64,000 nt of DNA from an uncultured delta proteobacterium (GCA_963827685.1 CAWHBU010000002.1:256001-320000), one strand, 5' to 3'. Counted from the stretch's first letter, positions 13,950 to 50,462 are shown. Numbers and translations are program-made. The notes: generated by a model not told the origin, from the letters alone.

Positions 13950-14045
13950 ATGGCGAGAGATTATAAAAAGATAAAGGCATGCCAGCTGGCAGAGAAACTG
14001 GCACTCTTGGTATATACGAAAAAATTTCAAAAAAGTGAAATATAG
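13950..14045 (+). pseudogene. Truncated four-helix-bundle (23S-IVP/Avd-like) gene remnant
   Basis: GAGGGG RBS followed by MARDYKKIKACQLAEKLALLVYTKKFQKSEI*, resembling the N-termini of the ORFs at 30932 and 38210; flanked by inverted 7-bp arrays. Confidence 0.7.
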
Positions 14046-14215
14046 AGTTAGAGGAGTTTGATGTCTAACGTCTGAAGTCCGGTGTCTGAATTGCAGGTCG
14101 ATTAAGGTGAAGCTGGACTTTTGAAAGAAAATTAACTATATTAAAAGTTAATTTGGGAATTTTGGGATTCCTAAATCCTCAATCCCTTAATTCTTGAATT
14201 GAAAATTCTGATTAT

Positions 14216-27617: not shown

Positions 27618-27890
27618 GCACGCAAAGCGCATAGAGCATGGCGTAATGAAGACCCGTTAGGCGTAAGGGGAAGTAACCCAAAACCCTGCCTTCCCTCCCA
27701 CTTGACGGGGACACAAAACTTTCCCTCCCACTTGACGGGGGAGGGTGAGGGTGGGGGTGAGAGCGTAGCCTCGACGTTCCTGCCCCGCGGCAGGCAGGCA
27801 CTGCCGACGGGTCTTAAGAAGAGAAAGGGGTAGAAACCCAATGAACCCAATAGACTCAAAGAACCCAATGAACTTAACAAACCGACTAAC
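27618..27890. repeat. Stack of 7-bp arrays, REP-like palindromes and a 9-bp array
   Basis: AAGCGCA/TAGAGCA units, GCGTAAG units, 20-bp direct repeat TTCCCTCCCACTTGACGGGG (27691 and 27721), CCTGCC..GGCAGG, AACCCAATG units. Confidence 0.7.
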
Positions 27891-29217
27891 CTGGTTTGGT
27901 AGGTTTATTTTTATTTTATTAATCTTATTGGCCCCTTCGATGGTTTATGCGGATTGGGGGGATATGCTCTCCAGATTTCAATTTTATGGCACTGTCCAGG
28001 AGACATACGATAACAACGTCAACCTTACGCCGAGGGACAAGAAGGATGATTTTATCACCACAGTTTCCCTCGGGTTAAGATTCTCCACGCTGCCGCGGTC
28101 TGAGACGACCGGTGGATTTCTGCCCCCTTCTGCTACTGAAGAGACAAGGTACGGGATCTACTTAGACTTTCTTCCTAGCTATCTCTTTTACGCAAAAGGC
28201 ACGAGTGACAATTATCTCAGTCTCTCCGGAAACCTGAACGCCTGGTATACGTGGGATAGAAAGCTGACGTTCCGAGTCAGAGATTATTTGATCCGATCTG
28301 AAGAACCTTTGGAGAGAAATTTCTCCGCCGACGCTTTACCAGGCCAAATCCTCCTCGGAAGCCAAAGGGGAAGGCCCATCTATATCCGAAACGTGGCCGA
28401 ACCTTCTCTCGAATATCGGTTTGGCAGGGAAGACATCATCTCGGTCAATTACTTGAACAATGTCTACAGAAATCAAGAGAGTTCCCTTTTCGAGGATAGC
28501 ACGGAAAACTACATCAACCCTAAGATCACTTACTGGTTCAATATTAGGCATGGGGTGTCTTTAGAATATGCCCTCGACCTGGGTGATTTTCATCGTTCTC
28601 CTGACATGACAGGGAATCTGGGTAAGGGCCGTTACACCTATCGTTTTGACCCGAGGGCCTCGGTTTTTGGAGAATACACCTTCCAGAGACGAGAATTTGA
28701 AAAGCAAGTTTCGGTACCTACCTTGGATTACGATATCCACGCACCGGCGATTGGCTTCGAATATGCTTTTAGCCCGACTCTCTCTCTTACCGCAAAATTC
28801 GGCTATTTCTGGCAAATCGTACAGAGAGGATCGAATGAGGCCGGGCCGCTTTACGACATCCTTATCACACAGCGCGCTCAAAAAACCACCTATACTCTCG
28901 GCTTCCGAGGCGGATATACCGAGGACTACTTTACAGCTCAGAATCTTGGGTTTGCGAAGTACAACCAGGTGATCGGAACGATCACCCACCAACTCATGGA
29001 AAGATTGGCTGTAACCTTTTCAGGCCGTTATCAAAGGCCTAAGTTTAATGACGGACGGTTAGACAACATATGGGGCGTCACAACGGGTGTCTCTTATCGA
29101 ATCCTAAGATGGCTGACCCTTGGCCTCGATTTCTCCTATACAGAAGATCATTCGAATAGAGAAGTAAATAATTATACCGATTTTATGGGAATTTTTCGGA
29201 TAACAGCCACATACTAA
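27841..29217 (+). CDS. Outer-membrane beta-barrel protein of EPS export
   Basis: Signal peptide, YDNNV..DDFIT motif, alternating aromatic strands, C-terminal Y; start uncertain because the N-terminus is repeat-derived. Confidence 0.75.
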   Translation: MNPIDSKNPMNLTNRLTWFGRFIFILLILLAPSMVYADWGDMLSRFQFYGTVQETYDNNVNLTPRDKKDDFITTVSLGLRFSTLPRSETTGGFLPPSATEETRYGIYLDFLPSYLFYAKGTSDNYLSLSGNLNAWYTWDRKLTFRVRDYLIRSEEPLERNFSADALPGQILLGSQRGRPIYIRNVAEPSLEYRFGREDIISVNYLNNVYRNQESSLFEDSTENYINPKITYWFNIRHGVSLEYALDLGDFHRSPDMTGNLGKGRYTYRFDPRASVFGEYTFQRREFEKQVSVPTLDYDIHAPAIGFEYAFSPTLSLTAKFGYFWQIVQRGSNEAGPLYDILITQRAQKTTYTLGFRGGYTEDYFTAQNLGFAKYNQVIGTITHQLMERLAVTFSGRYQRPKFNDGRLDNIWGVTTGVSYRILRWLTLGLDFSYTEDHSNREVNNYTDFMGIFRITATY

Positions 29218-29326
29218 TGTGACTGGTATAGTCATTTATAGGATAAATAAATGGACTCAAGTAACCCAATAGACACAAGTAACTCAATGAACTTTGCAGC
29301 AGCACAGCAACACTGAGGAGTAAACT

Positions 29327-30883
29327 ATGCCTGAACAAAAACCTTTTAACATTCATGACTATTTAGAGATGGGTCTACGCCGAAAGTGGTACATCGTTAT
29401 TCCATTAGTTCTATGTGTTCTGGTTTCCTTCGGTGTTTATAAACACCTCCCCAAGGTCTATAAAGCGACAACCCTGATTCTCGTTCAGCCACAAAGGGTT
29501 CCGGAAAGTTATGTCCGGGCGACCATCACGGATTCTGTGGCAGGCCGATTAAGTACGATTGGTCAGGAAATTTTGAGCCGCACGCGATTGGAAAAAGTTA
29601 TTCAGGAATTTAACCTCTATTCAGAGGTTCGAAATGACGTTCCCATGGAAGGGATCGTCGAAATGATGAGACATGCAGTTGAAGTAAAGGTTCAAGTCAG
29701 TCCTCAAAATGAACGGACACAAAACTCTTTTTCCATCTCTTTCGAGGGCAAAGATCCCAAGACAGTGATGATGGTGACAAACAAGCTGGCGTCTCTATTT
29801 ATTGAGGAAAATTTGAGAGTCCGTGAATCGCAGGCAGAAGGGACTGCTGAATTCCTTAGTAAGGAACTGATGGAAATGGAAGACCGATTAAAGCAAAAAG
29901 AGTACGCTATGCGGAATTTTAAAGAGCGGTCAATGGGTCAACTCCCCCAGCAGCTTGATGCGAATTTGAGAATCCTCGAACGGCTGCAGCAACAACTCCA
30001 GACGACCAGTGAAAACATGAGAGCTGCAGAAGACAGGAGCATGCTGCTCCAAAATCAAATTGAACAGTTGAGGACACGGGGACAATTCTCAATGTCGCAA
30101 AGGCCTCATGGAGATACAGGTACAGGGACGGAAGGCATAGGCAGGCAAGGCATTCCCGAAGATCCATTAATCAACGAATTGAATAATCTAAAACGAGAGT
30201 TAGCAAGCGCACAATCTAAATATAAGGAATCCCATCCAGATGTGATCGATCTCAAGAAAAAAATAGCAAACCTTGAGCTCAAGGTGAAGAAATTATTCGA
30301 AAGACAAGAGGCTGAGAGAACGGGGACAGAAAGGAATGGTCAGGAAGGGGTTGGTGAGGAGAGTCTATCTTCATTCACTTTGGACCCCAATACGGCAAGA
30401 CTCGTTGCTCAATATAGAGAACAATATGACAGTGCAGTGCTCGAAGCGAAGCGCGCAAAGGAAGAGGCAAAGAATTTAAAAGAGCAAATCAGCATCTATC
30501 AAAAAAGAATCGAAGATACGCCAAGGCGGGAGCAAGAGATAGCACTTTTGACAAGAGATTACGACCTCTTAAAGACCAATTATCAATCTCTTATGGGAAA
30601 AAAGATGGAGGCCCAGATGGCGGAGAATCTCGAACGGAAACAGCAAGGTGAACAATTTAAGATTTTAGACCCGGCCCGCGTTCCTGTAAAACCGGTCAAG
30701 CCCGATCGCAATAAAATTTTACTGATGGGAGGTGGCATCGGACTTGTGGCAGGATTGGGGTTGGCCTGGTTTCGAGAATCAATGGATCAATCTTTCCATG
30801 CCGTCTCGGACCTGGAAGACTATTTGGGAATACCCGTTATAGCCACCATCCCAAATCTCAAAGAAGAGAGGAAAGCAGCTTAA
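29327..30883 (+). CDS. Polysaccharide chain-length determinant (GumC/Wzc N-part)
   Basis: TM-coiled coil-TM layout, LSRTRLE, Y.ESHPDV and FKILDPA.VP.KPVKP motifs. Confidence 0.88.
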   Translation: MPEQKPFNIHDYLEMGLRRKWYIVIPLVLCVLVSFGVYKHLPKVYKATTLILVQPQRVPESYVRATITDSVAGRLSTIGQEILSRTRLEKVIQEFNLYSEVRNDVPMEGIVEMMRHAVEVKVQVSPQNERTQNSFSISFEGKDPKTVMMVTNKLASLFIEENLRVRESQAEGTAEFLSKELMEMEDRLKQKEYAMRNFKERSMGQLPQQLDANLRILERLQQQLQTTSENMRAAEDRSMLLQNQIEQLRTRGQFSMSQRPHGDTGTGTEGIGRQGIPEDPLINELNNLKRELASAQSKYKESHPDVIDLKKKIANLELKVKKLFERQEAERTGTERNGQEGVGEESLSSFTLDPNTARLVAQYREQYDSAVLEAKRAKEEAKNLKEQISIYQKRIEDTPRREQEIALLTRDYDLLKTNYQSLMGKKMEAQMAENLERKQQGEQFKILDPARVPVKPVKPDRNKILLMGGGIGLVAGLGLAWFRESMDQSFHAVSDLEDYLGIPVIATIPNLKEERKAA

Positions 30884-30931
30884 CTTAATAAAGCGTAAGG
30901 GGGAAGGCGTAAAGCGCAAGGGGTAAGGAGT

Positions 30932-31323
30932 TTGGAGAAACCGCGTAAGAAGTTGGATGTTTGGCAAGCAGCAATGAAAGCAGCAACAATGATATATAAA
31001 TTAACAGATAGATTTCAGGAAGAGGAAAAGTTCGGACTTGTCTCACAAATGAGGCGTGCATCAATCAGCATTCCTTGTAACATCGCTGAAGGCGCGGCAA
31101 GACAAGGGAAAAGAGAGTTCAAGAATTTTCTTAGCATGGCCCAGGGGTCTCTAAGCGAATTAGATACTCAACTAGAACTCGCTATCCTGCTCGGGTATAT
31201 AAGCACTGGAGATCTCCGAGAAATAGGGATCAATTATTAAGGATTGACAAAATGCTTTCAGGGTTAATTCGTAGTCTTACAAATAGGACTATAAACAACA
31301 AGGAGAAACGCTCTCGCGCCTAA
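30932..31323 (+). pseudogene. Four-helix-bundle (23S-IVP/TIGR02436-like) protein, frameshifted near 31228
   Basis: LDVWQ..EEKFGLVSQMRRASISIPCNIAEGAAR..F..FLSMAQGSLSELDTQL; the typical C-terminal helix DQLLRIDKMLSGLIRSL continues in another frame to TAA 31323. Confidence 0.85.
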
Positions 31324-31455
31324 CGCCTTGCGACCGGGCGCTACGCAGGGTCTTGGTACCTGATTTAGCACCTTTCGCCTTGCGCTTTACGGTTTTTTTA
31401 GAAATGTTTAAATGACGCTCTCGCGCCTTGCGACTAACGACTGACGGTCTTTGTT

Positions 31456-32406
31456 ATGTACGAACAATTTTACGGCCTCAGAGAAAACCCTTTCAGTGTG
31501 ACACCAAACCCCGAGTATATCTTTTTGGGGAAGCACCATCGAGAAGCCCTGGCTCAATTACTCTACGGGGTGAGGGAGAAGAAGGGATTCATTGTTATCA
31601 CCGGCGAGGTGGGCACTGGGAAAACAACCCTGGTCCGCTATCTTCTTGATAAATTGGATGATAATGGTCATACAAAAACGGCCTTCGTATTTAACCCGAA
31701 ACTGGCTGTAAACGATTTCATCCAATACATATTGAAAGATCTTGGGGTAAGAGTTCAGGGACAAACGAAGGGTGAGCATCTTCATAACCTGCATCGGTAT
31801 TTACTCAACGCTTATCAGAAGGATGAAAGAGTGATCTTAATAATAGATGAAGCCCAGGGGTTAAAACCAGAGCTGCTTGAAGAGATCAGGCTCCTTTCAA
31901 ACCTTGAGACCTCAAGATCGAAATTGCTTCAAATTGTGTTAGTCGGGCAACCGGAATTTGATAAAACACTCTCGCTGCCGGGATTTCGCCAATTGAGACA
32001 GCGTATCAACTTACGATACTATTTGCCACCGCTTACTGTCAAAGAGACAGAAGAGTATATCGGGAAGAGATTAAAAATTGCAGGCGCCAAGGAACCTATT
32101 TTTACGGGGAAAGCAATTAAAGAAATTTATCTGAAATCGGGGGGGATACCACGATTAATCAACATTCTCTGTGACAACGCATTATTAAATGGATACGCTC
32201 TGGACCAAAAGCTGGTTGATAAAGGGTCAGTAAAAGAGGTCGCTAAGGATCTAAATCTTAAGAAGGGGTCTCGTAGAATTTTGATTTTGTTTTTTATCTA
32301 CATTTCTATTGGCGTAGGCATTCTATTATTCGTTTATTTGGGAAGGGGCGGGTATCTGTCGTCCCTTTATAAGGAAATTCTCCGAGGCTTCCAACATATT
32401 TTTTAA
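31456..32406 (+). CDS. ExeA/GspA-like AAA ATPase (XrtA-system associated)
   Basis: MYEQFYGLRENPF, GEVGTGKT, IIDEAQ, LVGQPE and GIPRLIN.LCD motifs. Confidence 0.9.
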   Translation: MYEQFYGLRENPFSVTPNPEYIFLGKHHREALAQLLYGVREKKGFIVITGEVGTGKTTLVRYLLDKLDDNGHTKTAFVFNPKLAVNDFIQYILKDLGVRVQGQTKGEHLHNLHRYLLNAYQKDERVILIIDEAQGLKPELLEEIRLLSNLETSRSKLLQIVLVGQPEFDKTLSLPGFRQLRQRINLRYYLPPLTVKETEEYIGKRLKIAGAKEPIFTGKAIKEIYLKSGGIPRLINILCDNALLNGYALDQKLVDKGSVKEVAKDLNLKKGSRRILILFFIYISIGVGILLFVYLGRGGYLSSLYKEILRGFQHIF

Positions 32407-32551
32407 AGAGATATTGAATGAAGGAGTTTCAAGATTTTTCCAGTTTCTTTGAATGAGAACGCTATGCTCTACGAATTATTTCTAACGGAAGCGCTGCGGC
32501 GCCGCAGTACGGTGGCACTTTCTATTCCCTATACGCTCTGCGAGGTTTTGA

Positions 32552-33409
32552 ATGAGTCGAGTTTATAAAGCCCTTGAAAAGGCGGAAGAAGAAAAAAGGC
32601 GAAAGGTAAAAGAAGAGCCCTCTCTGAAAGTATTTGAAGAGAAGGCTGTTTTGAGGAAAGAAGCGCCGACTTTGAAATTTCCTGATGAAAAAATAGCGAA
32701 GATTGAGAAGTCAGAAGAGCTGGGACTTCCTTCAAGAGAAGAAGTTCCTCTTCTGGTTGTCCCGCCCAATTCTATTGCAGAAGAAGAATTTCGAAAACTG
32801 AAGACTCAAGTTTTTCTTCGTTTGCCTAACCCTCCTCATTCAATTCTTATTACCAGTACGGCACCTGGGGAAGGAAAGACAACCGTGTCTGTCAATTTAG
32901 CGATGGCTATTTCAAAGGAAATTCATAGAAAGGCTATACTCATCGACGGAGACCTCCGGAAACCAAGTATCCGTCTTGAACAAAGTCGGAACAGAAAGGG
33001 TCTATCGGATTACCTTTCAAACAGGACTCCTTTGACAGAAATCCTGATGAATTCTCAAATGGAAAACCTCCGGATCATTATGGCAGGGCCTTCTACCAAT
33101 AAATCCTCAGAGCTGATCGGATCGAAAAGAATGGAAGAACTTCTGAAGTCCCTCAGTGAGTCCGGGGACAGTACTTATATCCTGATCGATTCCCCACCCA
33201 TTATTGCTACCACCGAGCCCACTGTGCTCTCGAAAATGGTAGATGGGATTATTCTGGTGGTGAGGGCAGACCGGATCCCAAGAGAGTCAATTCGAAGAGC
33301 AGTGAAGTCCATCGATCGTCAGAAGATCATTGGGGTGGTTTTTAACCAAATCGACATGAAGCCGTCCAGTTACTATGCAAAATATTATTACAAATATTAC
33401 CAAAGGTAA
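32552..33409 (+). CDS. Bacterial tyrosine autokinase (CpsD/CapB)
   Basis: ITS..PGEGKTT, IDGDLRKP, IDSPP and C-terminal Tyr cluster YYAKYYYKYY. Confidence 0.92.
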   Translation: MSRVYKALEKAEEEKRRKVKEEPSLKVFEEKAVLRKEAPTLKFPDEKIAKIEKSEELGLPSREEVPLLVVPPNSIAEEEFRKLKTQVFLRLPNPPHSILITSTAPGEGKTTVSVNLAMAISKEIHRKAILIDGDLRKPSIRLEQSRNRKGLSDYLSNRTPLTEILMNSQMENLRIIMAGPSTNKSSELIGSKRMEELLKSLSESGDSTYILIDSPPIIATTEPTVLSKMVDGIILVVRADRIPRESIRRAVKSIDRQKIIGVVFNQIDMKPSSYYAKYYYKYYQR

Positions 33410-33457
33410 ATTTCGCTATGCGCTGTGTCCCATGCGCTTTGCAGTTAGGTGTGAGTT

Positions 33458-34844: not shown

Positions 34845-34909
34845 TAAACCCCGCATGCCTTATGCGCCTTTGCTATGCGGTGGGTTGGATAAAAATGGAG
34901 GTTTTCCAA

Positions 34910-35197
34910 ATGTCAATGGAAAATGAGATTAGAAAGTTTATCGGGGAAAGTTTCATATTGGAGGAGAATGATCACCTCGGCGATGAAGACTCTTTGTTAG
35001 AAAAGGGAATTATTGACTCAACGGGAGTCCTCGAACTGGTGGCCTTTCTCGAAGAGAGCTATCACTTCAAGATTAAGGACGAGGAACTGGTCCCCGAGAA
35101 TTTGGATTCAATTAAAAATATCTCTAATTTTGTCAAAGGGAAGATTAGAGATTTAACTGCAGAACCCCAGCATTGTAGTACTGCAGCAGTGAATTAA
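34910..35197 (+). CDS. Acyl carrier protein
   Basis: GIIDSTGVLELV phosphopantetheine motif, PENLDSI; GGAGG RBS. Confidence 0.88.
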   Translation: MSMENEIRKFIGESFILEENDHLGDEDSLLEKGIIDSTGVLELVAFLEESYHFKIKDEELVPENLDSIKNISNFVKGKIRDLTAEPQHCSTAAVN

Positions 35198-35259
35198 GCA
35201 GCTTATAACACCTTGTTCCTGACTCCTTCCGTTTTACGGTCTTAAGGAATATAGAGAAA

Positions 35260-36237: not shown

Positions 36238-36284
36238 GTTAAACGCTATGCGCTTTGCTCTATGGTATAGATAGGAGTTAGATA

Positions 36285-37277: not shown

Positions 37278-37406
37278 AATACGGCAAGGGGGAAGGCTTA
37301 ACAGCTCTAACGACTAACGCCATTGCGACTTGCGCCTTACGACCGGCGGTCTTTACAGTAAATAACGCTTTGCGCTATGCACTCTGCACTATGCGAGGTT
37401 TTGTAA

Positions 37407-37904
37407 ATGGAAAACTGGTATGTGATTCAAACAAAACCGAAAAAAGAAGAAGAGGCGACATCTTATCTCTCTACAAAAGGAGTGGAAATCTTCAGCCCTC
37501 TTATTGAAACGTTTACATTAAGAAATGGCAGGATGAATAAAGAGTTAAAGCCGCTATTCCCAGGGTACGTATTTGGAAAGTTTGATCTCGACCAGAATTA
37601 TCCTCTGGTTAGGTGGGCGAGGGGAGTTAAAAAAATACTGGGCTTCGGAGAATATCCCACCTCAATTTCTGAAGAAGTGGTGGAGATCATTAAGGAAAGA
37701 ACAGATACTCAGGGGATTGTGAGAGTTAAGCATCATTTTGAACCCAATGACGTAGTGAGAATCAAAACAGGACCCTTGAGAGATCTCTTAGGAATCTTTG
37801 AAAGATGGGTTTCTGATAACGAGCGGGCCAGGATTCTTTTGAATTTGATCGGATATCAACCGGCTGTGGAGATTCATTATTCGATGATAGAGAAAGTAGC
37901 ATAA
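37407..37904 (+). CDS. Specialised NusG paralogue (RfaH/UpxY-like antiterminator)
   Basis: WYVIQTKPKKE, PLFPGYVF, RGVKKILGFG and KOW (DVVRIKTGPL) motifs; inside an EPS locus. Confidence 0.88.
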   Translation: MENWYVIQTKPKKEEEATSYLSTKGVEIFSPLIETFTLRNGRMNKELKPLFPGYVFGKFDLDQNYPLVRWARGVKKILGFGEYPTSISEEVVEIIKERTDTQGIVRVKHHFEPNDVVRIKTGPLRDLLGIFERWVSDNERARILLNLIGYQPAVEIHYSMIEKVA

Positions 37905-37909
37905 AAAGC

Positions 37910-38207
37910 TTGAGTTTATTGCGTTTCTTGAGTCTATTGAGTTTATTGTGTTCTTTGAGTTGAAACCCAATTAACACAATGAACCCAAGCAACTCGATAA
38001 ACACTAAAGAATAACCTTAACCCACACTTATCGTGGATCTTACACTACAATATTTTGATCTTTTTCGTAGAATTGAATGAAATTCGAACCGGCGGTAGCT
38101 TGCATTGGGTTTGTTGAGTCCATAGAGTTATTGGGTTTCTTGTGTTCCGTAGATTGAGTGATCCAACAAACTCAATAAACACAATGGACCTACCGAACCC
38201 AAGGGAC
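37910..38207. repeat. Two long imperfect hairpins built from 9-bp-period arrays
   Basis: TTGAGTTTA-type x6 (37910-37963) then AACCCAATN x5 (37964-38007); again at 38105-38148 versus 38160-38207. Confidence 0.85.
38091..38102 (+). promoter_or_regulatory. ops (operon polarity suppressor)-consensus element
   Basis: GGCGGTAGCTTG matches GGCGGTAGnnTG, ~190 bp downstream of the RfaH-like gene. Confidence 0.65.
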
Positions 38208-38209
38208 AA

Positions 38210-38668
38210 ATGAAGATAGCTCGTTTTGAAGATATAGAGGCATGGCAAGAAGCAAGAAAACTTGTGACAATGGTTTACGATGCCATAAAGAAGAACCCCC
38301 AGTTTCGGAGGGATTTCCGCTTGGTAGGTCAGGTGCAGGACGCTGCAGTATCCTGCATGTCAAATATTGCGGAAGGTTTTGCGAGAAGGAGTAACAGGGA
38401 GTTTATCCAATTCCTTTTTATATCCAAGAGTTCGGCAGCAGAAGTTCAAAGTCAATTCTACGTAGCCTTAGATCAGGGGTACGTTATCAAAGATGATTTT
38501 GGGAGGATTTATGACCAGGCTGAGATAGTATCTAAACTGGATTCGGGTTTTATAAAGTATCTGAATTCGACGTTTGAGAATCGTCCTAAACGCAATCAAC
38601 TCAACAAACCCAATAAACCCAACGAACCCAATAAACCCAACGAACCCAATGAACCCAATAACTCATAG
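38210..38668 (+). CDS. Four-helix-bundle (23S-IVP/TIGR02436-like) protein with repeat-encoded tail
   Basis: FEDIEAWQEAR..DFRLVGQVQDAAVSCMSNIAEGFAR..EFIQFLFISKSSAAEVQSQFYVALDQGY; C-terminal (N-K/E-P)n from the 9-bp array. Confidence 0.9.
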   Translation: MKIARFEDIEAWQEARKLVTMVYDAIKKNPQFRRDFRLVGQVQDAAVSCMSNIAEGFARRSNREFIQFLFISKSSAAEVQSQFYVALDQGYVIKDDFGRIYDQAEIVSKLDSGFIKYLNSTFENRPKRNQLNKPNKPNEPNKPNEPNEPNNS

Positions 38669-38694
38669 ACTTTTAAGAGATAGCGGAGGTACCC

Positions 38695-38880
38695 ATGATT
38701 ATCAAAGCTTGTTTAAAATGTAAATTTCATGAGATTAAACAGGACGGAAAAGAAGAGGCGAGTCACTGTAGGAGGGAAAACTGTTGGTCTCGGTACTCCA
38801 AGTGTGTCCTTGCAAAGGCCCTCGAAAAGTTTTTGAAAGAAGAATCCTCTCGACATGAACAATCCCTCTCCGCCTTTTAA
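38695..38880 (+). CDS. Small Cys-rich protein
   Basis: GGAGG RBS; CxxCxxH...CxxxxC......C pattern. Confidence 0.65.
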   Translation: MIIKACLKCKFHEIKQDGKEEASHCRRENCWSRYSKCVLAKALEKFLKEESSRHEQSLSAF

Positions 38881-39133
38881 TTTGTTTTGCTTATTTATTA
38901 GCGCGCTGCGTCATGCCTGCCATCCGCAAGGCTTTTGGAAGCGGGTACTTGGCTCTATGTATCGTATCAGCAAGACCGCAACACAACAGTACTTAACAAC
39001 TTATTGTCTATTATCTCAATAACTCACTCGCTTAATAACTTGATAACCCAACAAACTCCATAAACCCATTGAACTCAAATAACCTTGTTACCGCAGCACC
39101 CAATAACCCAATAACCCATTTACTTACTAACTA

Positions 39134-40714
39134 ATGAAATTATCTAAGTCTAAACGTCTATGGGTTATCATATTGATCGCACTCTTGTTGTTTGCCGCAA
39201 AGGCCTATTACGACACCAACTCCATCGAGGTCAGGCATTACCAGATCGAAAATTCATCATTGGGAGAAGTTTTAAATGGTTTAAAAGTGGCCCACCTTTC
39301 GGATCTTCACGTCAAAACCATCGGTTTGAGGGAAAGCAAGATATTAGAAATCCTGAAAGAAGAAAAACCAGATCTTATTTTTATTACTGGGGACTTAATA
39401 AGTTTTCAAGGACCTTATGAACCGGTGATGTCATTTCTCTATCAATTGAAACCTCCTCTTGGTGTTTATGCTGTTTTAGGCAACACAGAATATTCCAATG
39501 AAAATGGTTCATGTACCCTCTGCCATAAAGAAAAGTCAAGAAACTTAAAAGAGAGTCATGGTGTAGTTTTTTTGAGGAATTCCTCTGGACCTTTAAAAGT
39601 CAATGGAAAGGTCATTAACATTATTGGAGTGGATGACCCTGTTTTGAAAAAGAGTGATTTGAAAATTGCACTGAAGGGGGCGAACCCTGATCATCCATCA
39701 ATTGTGTTGGCCCATTCCCCGGAGATTTTTGACGAGGCATCTGAATTTGGATTTGATCTTCTTCTCAGCGGCCATACCCACGGAGGCCAAATCTTTCTCA
39801 CTAAGTATCTCAGAAAGATATTTCCTCTCGAAGCGTCTCTCGAATTCATCGAAGGATTCTTCCAGAAGGGAAAGCTGCTGATGTATGTAAGCCGAGGCAT
39901 TGGAACGAGTTACGTTCCTTTCCGTCTCGGTGTAAAACCTGAAATCACCTTCTTCAAGTTCTCGAATAATACGAGTAAAGAAAAGATGCGAATGGCCCAA
40001 ATGGACAAAGCAAACCAGTCAAATTCATCCCGTGAAGTGCCAAGCCTATTTCACTGGGACTCAACCAACCCAAGTAACTCAACGAACCAAACAAGCTCAA
40101 TGAACTCAACGAACCGAATAAGCTCCCTTCTAATCTCCAACCATCCTTCCAATACTATCTTTTCAGGCATTAGCATTTCTTCTATATTGGAGACTTTCGA
40201 TCTTCTGAGTATCATTCGCAAATCATTTGCATCGAATCATTCGCGAGATTCAAATATTTTATTCGACTTCGAATCAGATTCTGATTTAAAGCGGCTGAAC
40301 TGGCAGTGCCATAAATGGTTCGAGCTTTCCGAAGAACATGCAACCTCCGGTAAACATAGCCTTAAGGTTATCCTACCACCAGGTCAATATCCAGGAATAA
40401 GTTTTAAAGATATAAAGAAGAATTGGTCGAGCAGCCATTATTTTAAAATGGATATCTTTAATCCTTCAGATGAGACATTAAAGTTTCATATCCGCATCGA
40501 TGACAACAAGAGCGGTTGGGAATATGCCAACCGTTTCGACATTAATTTCTATTTAAGACAAGGAACAAACTGTGTTTCAATTCCTGTAGATTCAATCAAA
40601 ACGAATATCGATCATCGGCCTCTCAATTTAAAGAAAATAAAAGGGATGATGGTTTTTGTTCCCAATAGTACGAAAAAAAGAGAGATCTATCTCGACAACA
40701 TCCGATTGGAATAA
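39134..40714 (+). CDS. Metallophosphoesterase with C-terminal beta-sandwich/CBM-like domain
   Basis: SDLH, TGD, LGN, AHSP and SGHTHGGQ motifs; C-terminal domain ends IYLDNIRL. Confidence 0.8.
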   Translation: MKLSKSKRLWVIILIALLLFAAKAYYDTNSIEVRHYQIENSSLGEVLNGLKVAHLSDLHVKTIGLRESKILEILKEEKPDLIFITGDLISFQGPYEPVMSFLYQLKPPLGVYAVLGNTEYSNENGSCTLCHKEKSRNLKESHGVVFLRNSSGPLKVNGKVINIIGVDDPVLKKSDLKIALKGANPDHPSIVLAHSPEIFDEASEFGFDLLLSGHTHGGQIFLTKYLRKIFPLEASLEFIEGFFQKGKLLMYVSRGIGTSYVPFRLGVKPEITFFKFSNNTSKEKMRMAQMDKANQSNSSREVPSLFHWDSTNPSNSTNQTSSMNSTNRISSLLISNHPSNTIFSGISISSILETFDLLSIIRKSFASNHSRDSNILFDFESDSDLKRLNWQCHKWFELSEEHATSGKHSLKVILPPGQYPGISFKDIKKNWSSSHYFKMDIFNPSDETLKFHIRIDDNKSGWEYANRFDINFYLRQGTNCVSIPVDSIKTNIDHRPLNLKKIKGMMVFVPNSTKKREIYLDNIRLE

Positions 40715-40904
40715 CCCGTAAACACTGCAAGCCGCAAGGTGTTAAGGGTAGGCAGAATGAAACTTAAACGGCAACACTGCAGAATAGCAGCACCGCAGAG
40801 CATGGACACCCAGTCCTCTGTCCACTGTTTTTCAAATTCGCCTCGCACCTCACGCCTGACGCTTTGAATCTATCGCTAAGCGCTACAGATTTTAAGGTCT
40901 AATT

Positions 40905-42881: not shown

Positions 42882-43165
42882 ATAATGCAAAACGGATCCG
42901 TTGGAATGATAACGGCAGCCAACAGGACCCTCGAGCGCTTGAATCGTTGACGTCTTTAGAACACCTTACGCTTTATGTTTGACGTTCGTTATTGAATTTA
43001 CCATGCGCTCTGCTTCATGCATTGTTAAAGCGGCACCGCGGCACCGCCACACATATAAAATCACCTTAGCCCATCGGCTTGCGCCTTACGCATAACTTAG
43101 AAGACTCAATAACCCAATAAACCCAATGACCCAATCAACTCAATAAACCCATAGTGGAGTTAACC

Positions 43166-44809: not shown

Positions 44810-44901
44810 CGAATAAAAAGTGATGAGTGACGAGAATTAAGAAATTGATTAATAACTCATTCACATGATAACTTGATAACCCAGAGAACCCAAAGAACCC
44901 A

Positions 44902-46386
44902 ATGAACCCAGATACTCGAAAAACCAAAATACTCAGTGATGTTTATGCTGTCATCCTTGCGGGTGGGTCTGGGACAAGGTTTTGGCCTCTAAGCAGGGAG
45001 ACTCGTCCCAAACAAATGCTTCAGATTGTGGGAGAAGACACCTTGCTTCGGCAGACCGTTAATCGTATCGATGGATTAGTCCCCCCAGAGAATATCTGGA
45101 TTGTGACAACAGAAGACATGGCTTTAGATATTCGTTTCCATTTGGAATCATTTGGAGAATTAGCAAAGAAGATTAAATTTATCAAAGAACCTATAGCGAA
45201 AAACACAGCTCCAGCAATTGGTTTGGCTGGTATTTATCTCAATCATTTATTCCCTCAATCGGTGATGATTGTGATGCCTTCTGATCATGCCATTCCTGAT
45301 AGAGAAAAGTTCTTAAGTGACTTAAAACTCGCAATCCAAGGGGCGAGAGAAGATCATCTTGTGACTTTTGGAATCAAGCCGAGCCGGCCTGAAACTGGTT
45401 ACGGATATATCAAGGTTGAGAACGCTTCAAATATCGAGAAAAAAGGTCTTCGCAAGGTTGAATGCTTTGCTGAAAAACCTGACCTTGAAACTGCAAAGAA
45501 GTACCTTTCTAATGGGAGCTATTACTGGAACTCTGGGATCTTCATCTGGAAGACCTCCAAAATCCTCTCCGAAATCGAAAAATATCTTCCCGACCTTTAC
45601 AAGGGTTTAAAAGAAATGGAGTCGCTTCTGTTTGAACCCAATCAACCCAATAAACCCAACGAGCCCAATAAACTCAATAAACTCAAGGAACTCTATTCTC
45701 ATTTGGAGTCCATTTCTATCGATAAAGGCATCATGGAGCGCAGTCGTAACATCCTAATGGTTCCTGCCACTTTTCAGTGGTCTGATTTGGGGAGTTGGAG
45801 CGCTCTGGATGAAATCATTGAAAAAGATAAAGAGGGAAATATCCTCAAGGGGAATACAATTGATATCGGGAGCCAGAACTCAACTATCTATGGAGGCGAC
45901 AGACTCATTGCCACTATTGGGCTTAAGGATATGGTAGTGGTAGATACTCCTGATGCGACTTTGGTAACTCCAAAGGAGAGGGTCCAGGAGGTTAGAAAGA
46001 TTGTTGAGATATTAAAACGGAATGGTCGAGAAGAGCATCTGCTACATAAGACGGTTGAAAGACCCTGGGGGAGCTATACGGTGTTGGAAAAGGGACAGGG
46101 ATATAAAATCAAGAGAGTTGTTTTGAAGCCCGGAGCCAGATTGAGTCTTCAACTCCACAAGAAAAGAAGTGAGCACTGGGTCGTAGTAACGGGAACAGCC
46201 AGAGTAACGAAAGAAAATGAGACATACCTGGTTCATATCAATGAAAGCACTTACATTCCTGTAAACACTAAGCACCGTTTAGAAAATCCTGGGGAAGTTC
46301 TCCTCCAGATCATCGAAGTTCAAAACGGAGAATATCTCGAAGAAGATGATATAGAGCGCTTCGACGACGACTATGGTAGAATTTAG
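44902..46386 (+). CDS. manC: Mannose-1-phosphate guanylyltransferase/mannose-6-phosphate isomerase
   Basis: ILAGGSGTRFWPLSR, NTAPAI, PETGYGYI, WNSGIF, WSDLGSW, RPWG and cupin LSLQLH..RSEHW motifs. Confidence 0.93.
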   Translation: MNPDTRKTKILSDVYAVILAGGSGTRFWPLSRETRPKQMLQIVGEDTLLRQTVNRIDGLVPPENIWIVTTEDMALDIRFHLESFGELAKKIKFIKEPIAKNTAPAIGLAGIYLNHLFPQSVMIVMPSDHAIPDREKFLSDLKLAIQGAREDHLVTFGIKPSRPETGYGYIKVENASNIEKKGLRKVECFAEKPDLETAKKYLSNGSYYWNSGIFIWKTSKILSEIEKYLPDLYKGLKEMESLLFEPNQPNKPNEPNKLNKLKELYSHLESISIDKGIMERSRNILMVPATFQWSDLGSWSALDEIIEKDKEGNILKGNTIDIGSQNSTIYGGDRLIATIGLKDMVVVDTPDATLVTPKERVQEVRKIVEILKRNGREEHLLHKTVERPWGSYTVLEKGQGYKIKRVVLKPGARLSLQLHKKRSEHWVVVTGTARVTKENETYLVHINESTYIPVNTKHRLENPGEVLLQIIEVQNGEYLEEDDIERFDDDYGRI

Positions 46387-46480
46387 CACTTAACACAGCT
46401 GCAAAGTGGCGCAGCAGCACCGCAACACTGCGGCGCTTGGTATAACCCCTTACTCCTTACGACCTACGCTTTACGTATTT

Positions 46481-47407
46481 ATGAATAAAACTATTCTCCT
46501 AACCATCGACGTAGAAGATTGGTTCCAGGTAGAAAACTTCAAGGAACACATTCCATTTTCTTCCTGGCCGGAGTGTGAACTGCGCGTCGAAAAAAATGTC
46601 CATAAGATCCTCGATCTTCTCGACTCCATTAAACTCAATAGCTCAATAAACCCAATGGACCCAATAAACCCAATGAACCCAATAAACTCGATAAACCCCA
46701 AAGCAACCTTCTTCATTCTTGGCTGGATCGCAAAACGGTTGCCTCATCTTGTCCGTGAAATTCAAGCCCGGGATCATGAGGTTGCCTCCCATGGATATGA
46801 GCATAAACTTTGCAGAGACCAATCAGTGGATGATCTGAAAAAAGATTTGGTTAAAAGCAAGAAACTTCTTGAGGATTTGATTGGAAATCCCATTTACGGC
46901 TATCGCGCCCCCAGTTTTTCTATCGATAATGGTATCCTGAAAATAGTGGAGGAAGCGGGCTATTCTTATGATTCAAGTTTTAATTCTTTCAAGCTGAATA
47001 GACGATATGGACAAATCAGTCTAACAAATAATGGGAATAATGGGATTTATCATCAAATTTCTGAAAAGTTTTACGAGCTTCCAATCAGCAATCTAAAAAT
47101 TGGAAATCAGGTGATCCCGTGGGGAGGCGGAGGATACTTTCGGCTAATGCCTTTGCCGCTGTTCAAACGAGGAGTTGAGAAAATACTCAAGAAAAAGGGA
47201 GCTTACCTTTTTTACTTGCATCCCTGGGAGATTGACTCTGATCAACCCAAGATTTCGGAGATCGCTCGATCTTTTAAATTCAGACACTATTTGAACCTCG
47301 ATAAAACATACAGAAAGTTATCTATGCTTCTGAAATCATTCAAAGGGTGTCGTTTTCCAACTTGCATGGAGTTTCTTCGAGGTATCCATGAACCAACACC
47401 CAACTAA
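46481..47407 (+). CDS. Polysaccharide deacetylase (XrtA/DUF3473 type)
   Basis: LTIDVEDWFQV, ATFFILGW, HEVASHGY, GYRAPSFS, GGGYFRL and YLHPWEID motifs. Confidence 0.9.
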   Translation: MNKTILLTIDVEDWFQVENFKEHIPFSSWPECELRVEKNVHKILDLLDSIKLNSSINPMDPINPMNPINSINPKATFFILGWIAKRLPHLVREIQARDHEVASHGYEHKLCRDQSVDDLKKDLVKSKKLLEDLIGNPIYGYRAPSFSIDNGILKIVEEAGYSYDSSFNSFKLNRRYGQISLTNNGNNGIYHQISEKFYELPISNLKIGNQVIPWGGGGYFRLMPLPLFKRGVEKILKKKGAYLFYLHPWEIDSDQPKISEIARSFKFRHYLNLDKTYRKLSMLLKSFKGCRFPTCMEFLRGIHEPTPN

Positions 47408-47560
47408 CCCGATAAACTAAAGTAACCCAATGAAACCATTGAACCGCAGCACCGCAGTACAGCAGCACATAATAACTTATTCACTTAATAACTTGACAAC
47501 CCAATGAACCCAAGCAACCCAATCAACTCCAGTAACTCAACAAACTCAATAGACCCGACA

Positions 47561-49126
47561 ATGACTTTAATACATCATTTTCTCGAACGGAGCGCTAATC
47601 TTTTCCCTAACAAGACCGCTCTTGTTCACGGCAATGTAAGGGCTACCTACAACCAGATAAACAACCGGGCAAATAACCTTGCTGTTCACTTAATCGAAAA
47701 TGGACTTACTCCGGGTGACAGGGTTGCGCTCCTCATGGAGAACTGCCTTGAATACGTCATCAGCTATTACGGAATATTGAAAGCCGGGGCAGTTGTAGCT
47801 CCACTCAACAGCGACTTGAAATCGGAAGGGCTAAGAGCAATTCTAACCGAACTTGAGGCCAAGTGTGTTATCTCATCATCAAGATGGGAGAAGCTTTTGC
47901 AGGAGGTGGACTTGGCAGCATGTGGTATTCAAGAACTAATCTTGAGAGCCCCTAAGCTAAAATGGTCATCAGCACCATACGTGGTGAGCGACTTGGATAG
48001 CCTGTCTGAAGCTCGGCAAACACGAAATCCGGATATCCAAATTCAGGAAAGCGATCTGGCAAGCATCGTTTATACATCCGGGTCTACTGGTGGCCCCAAA
48101 GGGGTTATGTTATCTCAACAGAATGTTGTTCACAATACCTTCTCCATCTGTGAATACCTCCATCTTACCCACGAGGACATACAGATGGTTGTTTTACCCT
48201 TTTTTTACGTGATGGGGAAATCGCTTCTAAATACCCATTTTGCAGTGGGCGGATCTATTGTGATCAATAACAAGTTTGCCTTTCCAGCCACGGTCCTCAA
48301 CGAGATGATCTTGGAGAAGGTAACAGGATTATCGGGAGTACCATCGACATTTGCCTACCTTCTGCATCGCTCTCCTCTGGCTAATAGCCGCGATAAGCTG
48401 AGCTCACTCCGATATTGCAGTCAGGCAGGCGGACATATGTCGACGGCAATCAAAGAGGAGTTGAGGCGTGTTTTACCGACTCATACAGCGATTTACGTCA
48501 TGTACGGAGCGACTGAGGCTGCCGCCAGACTTTCCTACCTTGAGCCTTTACGGTTCGAGGGCAAGATGGACTCAATTGGAGAAGCTATACCTGGTGTCAC
48601 CCTGAAGGTTCTGAATGATAGTGGAGAAGAGGTTCCTGTAGGCCAGGTTGGTGAGCTGGTCGCAGCGGGAACCAATATTATGAAGGGCTACTGGAAGAAT
48701 CCGGAGGCTACGGCGAAGGTTTTGGTTGATGGATGGTATCATACTGGTGATCAGGCTTATCAGGATGAGGAAGGGTTTTTCTACCTCATGGGGAGGAAAG
48801 ACGATTTACTCAAAGTAGGCGGGCATCGTATTAATCCCCAGGAGATTGAAGATACACTTATGAAATCAGGAATGTTTATAGAAGCCGTGGTTGTGGATGT
48901 TCCCGACAAACTCCTTGGCAACAAGCTGGTCATCCTGGCGGTTCCAATAAATGGTGAGTGTAGCAAGAACAAGGTCCTCGTTTACTGTGCGGATAAATTA
49001 CCCAAATACAAAATGCCTTCTGATTTGAAATTCATGCGTACACTACCAAAGAAGACCAGTGGCAAGATCGACCGCAATTTCTGCCGTGACCTGTACAAGC
49101 AACTGCAACCAACTTACAGCGGATAG
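47561..49126 (+). CDS. AMP-dependent acyl-CoA/acyl-ACP ligase
   Basis: YTSGSTGGPKG, YGATE, WYHTGD, GRKDD and LPK..SGKI motifs. Confidence 0.9.
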   Translation: MTLIHHFLERSANLFPNKTALVHGNVRATYNQINNRANNLAVHLIENGLTPGDRVALLMENCLEYVISYYGILKAGAVVAPLNSDLKSEGLRAILTELEAKCVISSSRWEKLLQEVDLAACGIQELILRAPKLKWSSAPYVVSDLDSLSEARQTRNPDIQIQESDLASIVYTSGSTGGPKGVMLSQQNVVHNTFSICEYLHLTHEDIQMVVLPFFYVMGKSLLNTHFAVGGSIVINNKFAFPATVLNEMILEKVTGLSGVPSTFAYLLHRSPLANSRDKLSSLRYCSQAGGHMSTAIKEELRRVLPTHTAIYVMYGATEAAARLSYLEPLRFEGKMDSIGEAIPGVTLKVLNDSGEEVPVGQVGELVAAGTNIMKGYWKNPEATAKVLVDGWYHTGDQAYQDEEGFFYLMGRKDDLLKVGGHRINPQEIEDTLMKSGMFIEAVVVDVPDKLLGNKLVILAVPINGECSKNKVLVYCADKLPKYKMPSDLKFMRTLPKKTSGKIDRNFCRDLYKQLQPTYSG

Positions 49127-49306
49127 CGCATAGCGGTTTTGATGGGCCACCCTATAGGATATAACTCAAAACTGGTCCCGTAAGAAGTGGTCAAATTTAG
49201 ATTCCATGATTCAAAGATGAACAGTCGCAATGTCCATGTATCGATTAAGATTCTCGATTACGCTATGCTCTGGCTATACGCTGCGCTCATCTGATGAGGT
49301 ATCCCA

Positions 49307-50158
49307 ATGAACTCAACAAACTCAATCAACCCAAGTAACTTAAAATTATTTACTATAAGCTTGATCATGTCAATCATCATCAGTTGTGGAGGAAAAATGG
49401 ACGAGAAGAAAAAGGTATTTCCGTCAATAAAGGACGTTCCGGAGGCTTCATGGAAGAAGCTTGCCGAGAAGCGCATTTATTTCGGCCACCAATCTGTGGG
49501 ATATAACATTCTTGACGGTATGAGAGACATCATGAAGGAAAATCAACAAATAATATTGAACATTGTCGAAACCAGTAACCCAGAAGACTTTAAAGCCCCG
49601 ATATTTGCCCACTCCCGGGTTGGAAAGAATGAAGATCCCAAATCAAAGTGCGATTCTTTTGCAGATATCATAGAAAAGGGACTTGGAAATAAAACAGACT
49701 TTGCCTTTTTTAAATTTTGTTTTGTAGATATTACAGTTGGAACGAATGTTGAAAAAGTTTTTAATGATTATAAGAGCACAATGTCTGCATTAAAACGAAA
49801 ATATCCTCAAGTAGTTTTTATTCATTTTACGAGTCCTCTTATGACGGTACAAACGGGTATAAAGGCCTTAATTAAAAAAATAATTGGAAGATCTATTGAT
49901 GGATACGATGAAAACATTAAAAGAAATCAATTTAACGAAATGCTAAGGAAAGAATATGAGGGAAAAGAGTTAGTATTCGATCTCGCGCAAATCGAATCAA
50001 CTTTTCCAGATGGGACGAGAGCAACCTTCAATAGAAATGGGAAGACGTATCTGAGATTGGTTTCAGACTATACAAATGATGGTGGCCATCTGAATGCTAA
50101 GGCTCGAAAAAAAGTAGCGGAGCTACTACTGATCCTACTAGCAAATATCTCAAGGTAA
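49307..50158 (+). CDS. Hypothetical lipoprotein, SGNH-like
   Basis: IIISC lipobox-like, YFGHQSVG and DGGHLN motifs; start uncertain (repeat-derived N-terminus). Confidence 0.6.
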   Translation: MNSTNSINPSNLKLFTISLIMSIIISCGGKMDEKKKVFPSIKDVPEASWKKLAEKRIYFGHQSVGYNILDGMRDIMKENQQIILNIVETSNPEDFKAPIFAHSRVGKNEDPKSKCDSFADIIEKGLGNKTDFAFFKFCFVDITVGTNVEKVFNDYKSTMSALKRKYPQVVFIHFTSPLMTVQTGIKALIKKIIGRSIDGYDENIKRNQFNEMLRKEYEGKELVFDLAQIESTFPDGTRATFNRNGKTYLRLVSDYTNDGGHLNAKARKKVAELLLILLANISR

Positions 50159-50462
50159 TCGACAATTTTGTTTTTACTATCACCTATCAGCAATAAGCCA
50201 TAAGCCTGCTTGATAACCCAATCAAACCGATTACCCCAAATAACCCTATGAACTTAACGAACTCGGTTAACCAAGAAACCCAACGACCCCAATAAACCCA
50301 GGCAACTCTTCTGCTCTTATTCTGATTACTGTTGACCCGGGGGATAGTTCCATGTGGAAATATTTCGGGAATGTATTCCATTTTCTTTGTGGGCATTTTG
50401 TGAAAGCCAAGCACTTTATTAGATATTATTATTCCGTTTTCCTGGATTATGTTCGAGGATAA

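Follow-up and report, generated by a model that had tools for sequence, protein, structure and literature searches.

What are the short tandem repeats that fill the spacers of an exopolysaccharide (EPS) locus in an uncultured delta proteobacterium, and why do two small genes of that locus lie between inverted arrays of them? The stretch of DNA analyzed, hereafter the window, is 64,000 nt long (GCA_963827685.1 CAWHBU010000002.1:256001-320000, or G000:C2:256001-320000 in our numbering of genomes and contigs) and belongs to a genome of 5.23 Mb in 14 contigs, with a G+C content of ~47%. Positions without a contig prefix refer to the window, in which the XrtA/PEP-CTERM-type EPS locus spans 25–52 kb. 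An earlier, sequence-only reading had proposed a system of three four-helix-bundle genes, each bracketed by its own inverted arrays, with further arrays scattered without a gene over the operon. The observation is confirmed and is wider than first proposed. We think it probable, though well short of certain, that these are selfish stem–loop cassettes of the intervening sequence (IVS) type, residing in operon spacers instead of rRNA, together with their relics.

Two of the three claimed genes, here genes 1 and 2 (Table 1), stood up to profile searches. Both belong to PF05635/TIGR02436, a very common family of unassigned function, with Pfam scores of 120.4 and 98 bits (cut-off, 33.8) and TIGR02436 (NCBIfam) scores of 108.5 and 96.1 bits (cut-off, 24). 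Residues 7–107 of the gene 2 protein match XCC0516 of Xanthomonas campestris, for which a structure has been solved (PDB 2GSC; E 4.4e-14). Gene 1 ends at a premature TAA, which cuts off the C-terminal end that its orthologues keep. Its 5' arm is complementary to nt 31371–31391 at 19 of 21 positions, and the 3' arm region consists of three blocks (~31308–31337, 31371–31392 and 31415–31447) whose reverse-complement arrays are too degenerate for Tandem Repeats Finder (TRF) and legible by eye. In the minimum free energy fold of the RNA from 30880 to 31400, the arms pair around the gene 1 open reading frame (ORF), with a z score of -3.06. The 9-mer array doubles as the last ~25 codons of gene 2, encoding an NKPNEPN... 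tail. The third claimed gene, at 13950, is a 31-codon remnant with arms. In blastn comparison with the cassette at C2:735734, its 5' arm and ~80 nt of the ORF matched, and its 3' arm matched separately; the remnant is therefore an internally deleted copy that has kept both arms.

A genome-wide repeat scan bore out the predicted link between arrays and this gene family. Profile search found 18 PF05635 matches, of which three contain internal stops. Twelve of these 18 genes had arrays of period 5–18 on both sides, at a distance of up to 200 bp, compared to 261 of 4649 called genes (Fisher p 1e-11), and 17/18 had them on at least one side, compared to 1600/4649. We scored inverted arms by aligning the 250-nt upstream flank to the reverse complement of the downstream flank, with 597 small genes as controls. 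The median score was 37 for PF05635 genes versus 17 for controls; all 18 exceeded the control 95th percentile, so that the inverted polarity claimed around these genes holds throughout, and 13 exceeded the 99th. Direct-repeat flank scores were raised in only six of the 18. Every PF05635 gene has the orientation of its upstream neighbor and 17/18 that of both neighbors (baseline for both, 0.595; p 0.001). None lies in 23S rRNA: the 23S gene is at C7:12618–15662, and contig C7 has no PF05635 match.

The genome is rich in such arrays in general. For periods 5–9, 1548 arrays scored at least 30 (361 in a shuffled genome), 690 of them heptamers, and 350 scored at least 40 (4 in the shuffled genome). 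Of the latter, 261 are intergenic, in a genome whose non-coding share is 17% by crude ORF calls. Such abundance and heptamer bias, along with indels of whole units between strains (below), would be expected if the arrays were slippage microsatellites, a genome habit like that of the cyanobacterial repeats discussed at the end, lying near PF05635 genes by chance or through shared variable islands. We regard this as very improbable. Slippage does not account for a 12-fold enrichment of two-sided arrays at PF05635 genes, for inverted complementarity at every one of them, for a fixed polarity in which the G-rich arm comes first (46 cassettes versus 1), or for recurrence of the architecture across phyla. 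The two-sided enrichment, inverted complementarity and polarity, and the other genomes of the phylum, all contradict it.

Do gene and arms behave as one unit? Among 57 cassettes, flanks were similar in 61–100% of pairs with protein identity of at least 60%, but in only 2–5% of pairs below it; in the former pairs, the similarity is partly but not wholly due to shared locus. The cassettes C3:653410 and C6:457139, which lie on different contigs and encode proteins 78% identical, have only the arms (unit AAGGCAG) and the ORF in common. C2:785167 is 88% identical to a gene found in the EPS locus of a relative (the type-B gene of L021, below), and the homology ends at the arms. In G138, a genome from another family of the phylum, both orthologues (64–68%) of the C3:1226884 protein are directly followed by AACTCCG arrays. 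These data show that a gene and its two arms are inherited and relocated as one unit.

Exchange at a fixed position was followed in the spacer between the Wzz and ATPase genes. Of 24 related EPS loci (numbered with the prefix L), 19 cover this spacer, which with the window gives 20 informative loci. Thirteen have a PF05635 ORF, of four types. Type A, with GGCGTAA-type arms, is found in the window (truncated), L002, L004, L005, L006, L010 and L011 (with an internal TAA), where the orthologues are 69–87% identical to gene 1. Type B, with GCGCAAA/GCGCATA arms, occupies L001, L009 and L021; type C, with GCAGGGA arms, L013 and L018; and type D, with GGTTCAAG arms, L022. The copy is disrupted by a frameshift in L008 and by an insertion of ~140 bp in L015. 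L014 retains both type-B arms with an ORF stub, L007 has an arms-only hairpin of 88 bp, and the slot is empty in L023 (44 bp), L019 (12 bp) and L020 (13 bp). The types differ by >60% in protein while the flanking Wzz proteins are 86–87% identical; hence they were exchanged rather than diverged in place. Remnants of one arm type lie outside another in L002, L006 and L018. In the L010 orthologue, every unit of both arms carries a matched change, reading GGAGTAA/TTACTCC instead of the GGCGTAA/TTACGCC of the others. Gene 2 has an orthologue (83% identity) downstream of a NusG/RfaH-like gene in L021. The insert in L015 (~8070–8215), which splits a type-B gene, has an internal palindrome of its own and is possibly a miniature inverted-repeat transposable element that landed in the cassette.

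Comparisons of closer relatives gave the same picture on a finer scale. L001 and L014 are 93–96% identical over 21 kb and show five large differences, all of them in spacer contents. Directly behind the stop codon of the NusG-like gene, L001 has a 478-nt cassette and L014 a 138-nt type-D hairpin, with sharp common boundaries. In near-identical strain contigs, we found in-array indels of 19 nt (within 38587..38661), 17, 9 and 18 nt. One such contig jumps from 30964 to 31304, leaving out 339 nt across gene 1, and from 37861 to 38080, leaving out 218 nt; these joints are weak, each with a side of only 22–39 letters, and were not used as empty-site evidence. Thus, among close relatives, cassettes come, go and replace one another at fixed spacer positions, as predicted; they decay to ORF-deleted copies (L014 and the window remnant) and arms-only hairpins (L007), which are the scars that the sequence-only reading expected; and arrays change by whole units between near-identical strains.

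This layout invites comparison with REP/REPIN elements (repetitive extragenic palindromic sequences and their paired forms) and REP-associated tyrosine transposases (RAYTs), in which a gene flanked by cognate inverted repeats is accompanied by many gene-less hairpins in spacers. The repeats might be generated in such a manner, or by the host, through a Y1 transposase or slippage at hairpins, with PF05635 genes merely landing in the hairpins or being tolerated there. Y1_Tnp (IS200/IS605-type) matches number 25 in the genome, most arrays and hairpins are gene-less, the nested arms of L002, L006 and L018 suggest insertion into existing hairpins, and arrays persist where a cognate protein match is not detected (below). 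Yet none of six Y1 genes examined (four divergent ones and one per insertion sequence type) had inverted arms, with scores of 17–20 and one weak array within 800 bp, and a RAYT-like association was rejected on these grounds. Moreover, the arms travel with the PF05635 gene to unrelated loci and other bacterial families, the architecture is found in five phyla, which a lineage-specific repeat generator would not predict, and the non-PF05635 genes between inverted arrays are ordinary host genes. The gene flanked here encodes a four-helix bundle without a known nuclease fold, and tandem arrays take the place of a single palindrome in the arms. We consider this explanation quite improbable. Of the 25 Y1 matches, 18 share one score and three another (e.g. 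C4:636157 and C2:115094), which points to recently active insertion sequences.

Consistent with the earlier claim, we found no transposase or reverse transcriptase (RT) in or beside the cassettes, whose sole ORF is PF05635. The absence of an RT matters for a further candidate, the diversity-generating retroelements (DGRs). Their accessory protein Avd has a related four-helix-bundle fold and resembles, or belongs to, the PF05635 family (PMC10053308); gene 1 matches the Avd equivalog weakly (E 8e-4). PF05635 proteins could thus be Avd-type accessory proteins, and the arrays template or variable repeats, but we give this next to no credence. The only RVT_1 match in the genome is at C4:393 kb, the nearest PF05635 genes being at C4:128 kb and C4:715 kb; the score against the Avd equivalog NF033474 was 19.7 bits versus a cut-off of 80; and the arrays are tandem units of 6–9 nt rather than a pair of template and variable repeats. 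The lone, distant RT and the equivalog score below cut-off led us to reject it.

Gene-less arrays were then related to cassettes genome-wide. Of 630 arrays (period 5–9, score at least 36), 152 had an inverted partner within 1.5 kb at a score of at least 28, compared to 23 in a complement-only control. Partner distances were bimodal: 107 at 0–100 bp, 5 at 100–200, none at 200–400 and 26 at 400–700. Among the 31 listed spans with partners at least 200 bp apart, 14 have a PF05635 gene inside and the rest hold host genes (FlpD twice, LspA, an Nth-like glycosylase and an epimerase) or ORFs without a Pfam match; no second cassette gene family was recognized in these 31. There are 78 non-redundant solo hairpins, 63 with the G-rich half first and 14 with the C-rich half first. 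Cassettes likewise are G-first in 46/49 cases, with one opposite and two ties. Among gene-less arrays >400 bp from any PF05635 gene, 157/606 have exactly the unit of a cassette flank, counted by rotation or strand (shuffled-unit control mean, 11.7), and 289/606 have it within one mismatch (control, 115).

The AACTCCG family allowed this link to be followed beyond the genome. (AACTCCG)3, at up to two mismatches, occurs in 14 of 151 genomes, from ~six families, with three matches in all for a reversed control pattern. All 14 carry PF05635, compared to 90/151 overall. A protein at least 59% identical to the AACTCCG cognate is found, beyond the present genome (G000), only in G105 and G138.

Could the arrays be binding sites of the protein instead of stems? 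PF05635 might form a pentameric ring that binds tandem units, one per subunit, much as TRAP binds triplet repeats. Its own cassette and the gene-less arrays would then make up a post-transcriptional or DNA-level regulon, and the inverted layout would reflect paired binding sites. Several findings suit this idea. Arms usually have ~3–8 units; the units are cassette-specific and co-inherited with the protein; 26–48% of gene-less arrays have cassette-arm units; and the invariant residues described below could form a conserved binding or active site. In addition, the absence of G-U bias in the arms (below) fits a role other than stem formation, the authors of a Geobacter study took similar paired arrays as global-regulator sites (PMC2700814), and PMC4990558 cites a report of a homopentamer for the Xanthomonas protein. 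We nonetheless judge it unlikely, if less so than the other rivals. Array families occur in genomes without a cognate match at E ≤1e-20, orthologues ~70% identical have units one base apart (GGAGTAA in L010, GGCGTAA in the window), and a regulon leaves unexplained the gain, loss and replacement at fixed slots and the ORF-deleted copies with arms.

Returning to selfish cassettes of the IVS type, we propose the following scheme. A cassette consists of a PF05635/TIGR02436 four-helix-bundle ORF between two reverse-complementary terminal arms, each of ~3–8 tandem copies of a cassette-specific 6–9-nt unit, with the G-rich version 5' on either strand. It resides here in spacers between co-oriented operon genes, as in the XrtA/PEP-CTERM EPS locus, and not in 23S rRNA. 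Slippage and template switching at quasipalindromes are well established, and template switching between the inverted repeats, with slippage, may keep the arms alike. Many gene-less arrays and hairpins in spacers would be relics or non-autonomous derivatives of cassettes. In the operon transcript, the arms may pair into an imperfect stem of 20–45 bp with the ORF in the loop. This would be the stem–loop architecture that RNase III excises from rRNA-borne IVSs (PMC4990558), and the stem may be processed in the RNA here as well. As for the protein, S, N and E are invariant and Q, E and G near-invariant (N-I-A-E-G motif) across 48 divergent PF05635 copies, with Q/E at 96%; it is therefore under selection for some activity, and may itself be a maintenance or mobility factor.

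The same architecture recurs outside this genome. PF05635 is present in the above-mentioned 90 of 151 sampled genomes of the phylum, at up to 18 copies per genome. Search of other phylum genomes returned 29 loci, 26 of them with sufficient flank, and 24 of these scored higher than 95% of displaced-window controls. Their arms, which differ from cassette to cassette, are unmistakably tandem, e.g. (TCGTAAA)5, (TAGCAGT)5, (TTTCTGT)4 and (GGTGAAA)~7. A tblastn search of a plasmid collection gave 32 records, mainly from Nostocales. Inverted arms scoring at least 29 were found in 10 of the 12 plasmid copies examined, a score judged against controls from the other data sets rather than from plasmids; the two copies below it were those of Calothrix 7716 (28) and Nostoc PCC 7120 gamma (15). 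Cyanobacterial arms include TAGGGAG/TCCCTAC (Nostoc edaphicum), GGAGTCA/TGACTCC (N. punctiforme) and AGGTGAC/GTCACCT (Anabaena 90), and further armed copies are on plasmids of Pseudanabaena, Geminocystis, Picosynechococcus and Leptolyngbya. Outside cyanobacteria, plasmids of Gemmatirosa (Gemmatimonadota), Azospirillum (Alphaproteobacteria) and Riemerella (Bacteroidota) have them. On three cyanobacterial plasmids (L122, L126 and L130), PF05635 cassettes lie within cas operons; in two genera the cassette separates cas6 from cas4, and in a third it separates cas10 from cmr3. A figure legend of PMC10910872 counts PF05635 among the domains linked to CRISPR, and cassette insertion in cas operons may underlie this reported statistical association.

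Several observations weigh against the reading as IVS-type cassettes or limit it. Of the 630 arrays, 478 have no inverted partner at a score of at least 28, so a scar origin cannot be shown for all. Arrays of the AACTCCG family, 8–24 per genome, occur in G011 (22 matches), G133 (24), G037, G124 and G018, which have no cognate match at E ≤1e-20; arrays can therefore persist or spread without their gene. In a sample of 12 genomes (44–100 kb each; seven without PF05635 and five with 5–10 copies of it), array density did not rise with the number of PF05635 copies, a comparison confounded by G+C content: high-G+C genomes without PF05635 had 8–19 arrays per 100 kb and one seven-copy genome had 0. 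Co-orientation with both neighbors is weaker outside this genome, at 16/23 phylum loci, and two of 10 annotated plasmid cases, both cyanobacterial, are antisense to both neighbors. The G-first polarity reads alike on both strands and so describes the element, not the transcript; being strand-symmetric, it says nothing about a sense transcript. There is no G-U bias among mismatches in the arms: 59 are compatible with G-U pairing on the sense strand and 58 are A-C, and thus selection on an RNA stem is not visible. Finally, no target-site duplication was recognizable in the degenerate cassette flanks, and no insertion mechanism was identified. The idea of a mobile or RNA-processing cassette is partly supported: the unit is gained, lost and replaced among relatives and leaves scars, and the arms may pair in the RNA to loop out the gene, as they do in the computed fold.

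A bolder generalization is possible, but we hold it only tentatively and would sooner bet against it. PF05635 and tandem-repeat hairpins may form one pan-bacterial selfish system, in which a ring protein recognizes or helps copy arms of ~five 6–9-nt units and seeds spacers, intergenic heptamers are its footprints, and the rRNA IVS is its best-known landing site. If so, the footprints would cover the cyanobacterial short tandemly repeated repetitive (STRR) sequences, the Xanthomonas GGGAATC pairs, the Geobacter paired sites and possibly the Beggiatoaceae TAACTGA repeats, which would offer a concrete origin for short intergenic tandem repeats catalogued in several phyla and left unexplained. The stem–loop architecture, cassette-specific arms and slot turnover make PF05635 elements a definable, testable class. 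There is also a caution for annotators and association studies: PF05635 in EPS or CRISPR-cas operons may be hitch-hiking rather than functional there.

Table 1. Cassettes, gene-less arrays and in-gene arrays of the window
Feature	Position (nt)	Strand	Evidence
5' arm of decayed cassette, TCAGAC-type units	13917..13940 (approximate)	+	Sequence; blastn to C2:735734 cassette
PF05635 ORF remnant, 31 codons, ~255-nt internal deletion	13950..14045	+	Not among the 18 profile matches
3' arm of decayed cassette, GTCTGAA/GTCTAAC units	14060..14092	+	39-nt blastn match to C2:735734 3' arm
Gene-less G-rich arrays, GCGCAAA/GCGCATA type and GGCGTAAGG type	27619..27672 (approximate)	+	Sequence
9-mer array (AACCCAATG) across called start (27841) of porin-like gene (ORF 27841–29217)	27835..27883	+	TRF score 50
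Gene-less 9/18-mer array	29250..29288	+	TRF score 57
Cassette 1 5' arm, G-rich GCGTAAG/GCGCAAG units	30889..30928	+	TRF periods 14/21
PF05635 gene 1, type A, TTG start, premature TAA	30932..31240	+	Pfam E 4.8e-35
Cassette 1 3' arm region, C-rich CTTACGC/CTTGCGC-type units	31308..31447	+	Sequence; inverted flank alignment score 32
Gene-less CGCTATG-type array	33413..33442 (approximate)	+	Sequence
Gene-less CGCTATG-type array	36241..36265	+	Sequence; 31 nt swapped for 191 letters in near strain
Two gene-less C-rich arrays, CTTACGC and CGCTATG types	37305..37398 (approximate)	+	TRF, sequence
Gene-less hairpin 1, (TTGAGTTTA)n then reverse-complement units	37910..38010	+	TRF; fold -28.6 kcal/mol, z -4.6
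Hairpin 2, 5' half = best complement of array 3' of gene 2	38107..38200	+	Fold z -2.65; arm score 38
PF05635 gene 2	38210..38668	+	Pfam E 4.6e-28; TIGR02436 96 bits
Cassette 2 3' arm, (AACCCAATA)x8.3, TRF reading (AACCCAAT-A)x8.3	38587..38661	+	TRF score 87–101
Gene-less 9-mer/8-mer arrays, 3'-arm orientation	39040..39118	+	TRF, sequence
Gene-less GCGGCACC 8-mers and AACCCAATA 9-mers	43030..43151	+	TRF; 17-nt insertion at 43111 in near strain
9-mer array across called start (44902) of ManC-like gene	44878..44910	+	TRF; 9-nt deletion in near strain
9-mer array in frame in ManC-like gene, EPNQPNKPNEPNKLNKL insert	45635..45693	+	TRF
9-mer array 5' of conserved part of XrtA-type deacetylase	46626..46698	+	TRF; 18-nt deletion in near strain
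8-mer arrays in gap, then 9-mer array across called start (47504) of acyl-CoA ligase gene	47443..47527	+	TRF
Gene-less 9-mer arrays	50205..50300 (start approximate)	+	TRF, sequence

Gene-less arrays occupy many spacers of the EPS locus by TRF (Table 1), in line with the claim that most gaps have them, although the gap listed at 34.85 kb does not exist, the ORFs there overlapping. At a score of at least 36 (period 5–9), nt 27618–50307 hold 15 arrays, or 0.66 per kb, compared to 0.12 for the whole genome and 0.006 for a block-shuffled genome. TRF reads the first hairpin 3' of the RfaH/NusG paralogue as (TTGAGTTTA)x5.8 at 37910–37961, and the units of the 27619..27672 arrays are those of type-B and type-A cassette arms in relatives. 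The C/A-rich strand was said to lie mostly on the coding strand, and this is true of the locus only: genome-wide, unpaired arrays between co-oriented genes are G-rich in 123 cases and C-rich in 89. The arrays at 40.06 and 45.64 kb are not in gaps but in frame within genes. The former (40059–40114) encodes an S/T/N-rich stretch of a metallophosphoesterase; with the ManC-like insert and the gene 2 tail, it makes three in-frame 9-mer arrays in coding sequence, and 9-nt units can invade ORFs without frame shift. The family match of the XrtA-type deacetylase begins at residue 96 of the called ORF.

The nearest public loci are from Syntrophaceae/Thermodesulfobacteriota metagenome-assembled genomes. 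Besides the cassettes, the EPS locus encodes two sigma-54 activators and the RfaH/NusG paralogue (37407–37904); an export protein, a porin-like protein and a Wzz-like protein; and the ATPase of the XrtA-type system, an amidotransferase, a deacetylase and an acyl-CoA ligase. A GGCGGTAGC(T/C)TG motif lies 3' of the RfaH/NusG paralogue, inside '...AATTCGAACCGGCGGTAGCCTG...' (38091–38102), flanked by repeat hairpins and with cassette 2 just downstream. It is kept 3' of the NusG-like gene in L001, L010, L014, L021, L022 and L023 and resembles the consensus of the ops/JUMPstart element that recruits RfaH. Antitermination could be the reason why many hairpins are tolerated in the EPS operon.

Four other places deserve mention. 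At 27680–27760, GGGTGA repeats come after a duplicated 'CCCTCCCACTTGACGGGG' block; numerous metagenome contigs start or end at 27721–27760 with unrelated loose ends, depth is raised in this bin, and the block looks like a multi-copy repeat common to several organisms. Right after cassette 2, a small Cys-rich ORF (~61 aa; 38695–38880) has a counterpart of 71% identity in L021; in one near strain, 18 nt are duplicated in frame at 38842. A 303-nt segment (38995–39299) is missing from a near-identical strain, and with it the arrays at 39.0–39.1 kb and ~165 nt from the beginning of the metallophosphoesterase ORF as called; this gene may in truth start further downstream. Elsewhere in the genome, the AACCCAATA 9-mer family has another hot spot at C4:792–802 kb (L057 and L058), with long solo hairpins directly 5' of ribosome-binding sites. 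The genes there include an HK97-gp10-like tail component, and the cluster is possibly a prophage; bins of C4:740–820 kb are among the densest in arrays.

How does this compare with known systems? Stem-bounded PF05635 ORFs are the classic 23S rRNA IVSs. Those of Leptospira, Coxiella and others encode S23p, of the same protein family as here, and share with our cassettes an ORF bounded by complementary termini able to form a stem. The Coxiella IVS has a 28-bp terminal stem, is excised by RNase III and carries tandem GACAGAT heptamers 5' of the S23p ORF; the heptamer number varies between strains, the ORF has decayed, and the element is regarded as selfish, with its mobility unexplained (passages of PMC4990558). 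Unlike rRNA IVSs, the 18 copies here lie in operon spacers and none in rRNA, with many paralogous types per genome, both arms as tandem arrays and many gene-less derivatives; RNase III cutting would be a further likeness.

Abundant intergenic heptamer arrays are also known from cyanobacteria, as the GGGGA(C/T)T heptamers of Nostoc and the STRR units. Like STRRs, the arrays here are abundant, mostly intergenic, of ~7-nt units and in several families. STRR hosts are heterocystous cyanobacteria, however, and the present host is Syntrophaceae/Thermodesulfobacteriota-like, with sigma-54 activators. Similar arrays are the Xanthomonas GGGAATC heptamers, which form 70–75 convergent inverted pairs described as G-quadruplex-forming (PMC4692102), and the Beggiatoaceae TAACTGA repeats just upstream of start codons (PMC4679880). 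The passages searched in the heptamer-repeat papers give one or few units per genome and no tie to a gene family, whereas the present genome has numerous families of units, and each goes with a particular type of cassette. The protein of structure 2GSC, the solved PF05635 member, is likewise from Xanthomonas (X. campestris), the genus of the GGGAATC pairs. Closest in layout are the paired inverted arrays of Geobacter metallireducens, with 3–5 tandem repeats of 7–9 nt, named 'global regulator binding sites' of classes 1–3 (24 + 21 + 8 pairs on opposite strands, at variable distances, in spacers such as that between proB and proA; PMC2700814). They were read as IHF/HU sites, and the main text of that paper does not contain S23, intervening sequence or TIGR02436. 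In the open-access literature searched, no paper was found to connect PF05635/S23p genes located outside rRNA with tandem arrays at their flanks. The system is thus not quite undescribed: rRNA IVSs, the Coxiella heptamers and the Geobacter and Xanthomonas paired arrays precede it, the last two without a link to this gene family. What is new is the probable presence outside rRNA of IVS-type cassettes whose arms are tandem repeats and which have gene-less derivatives.

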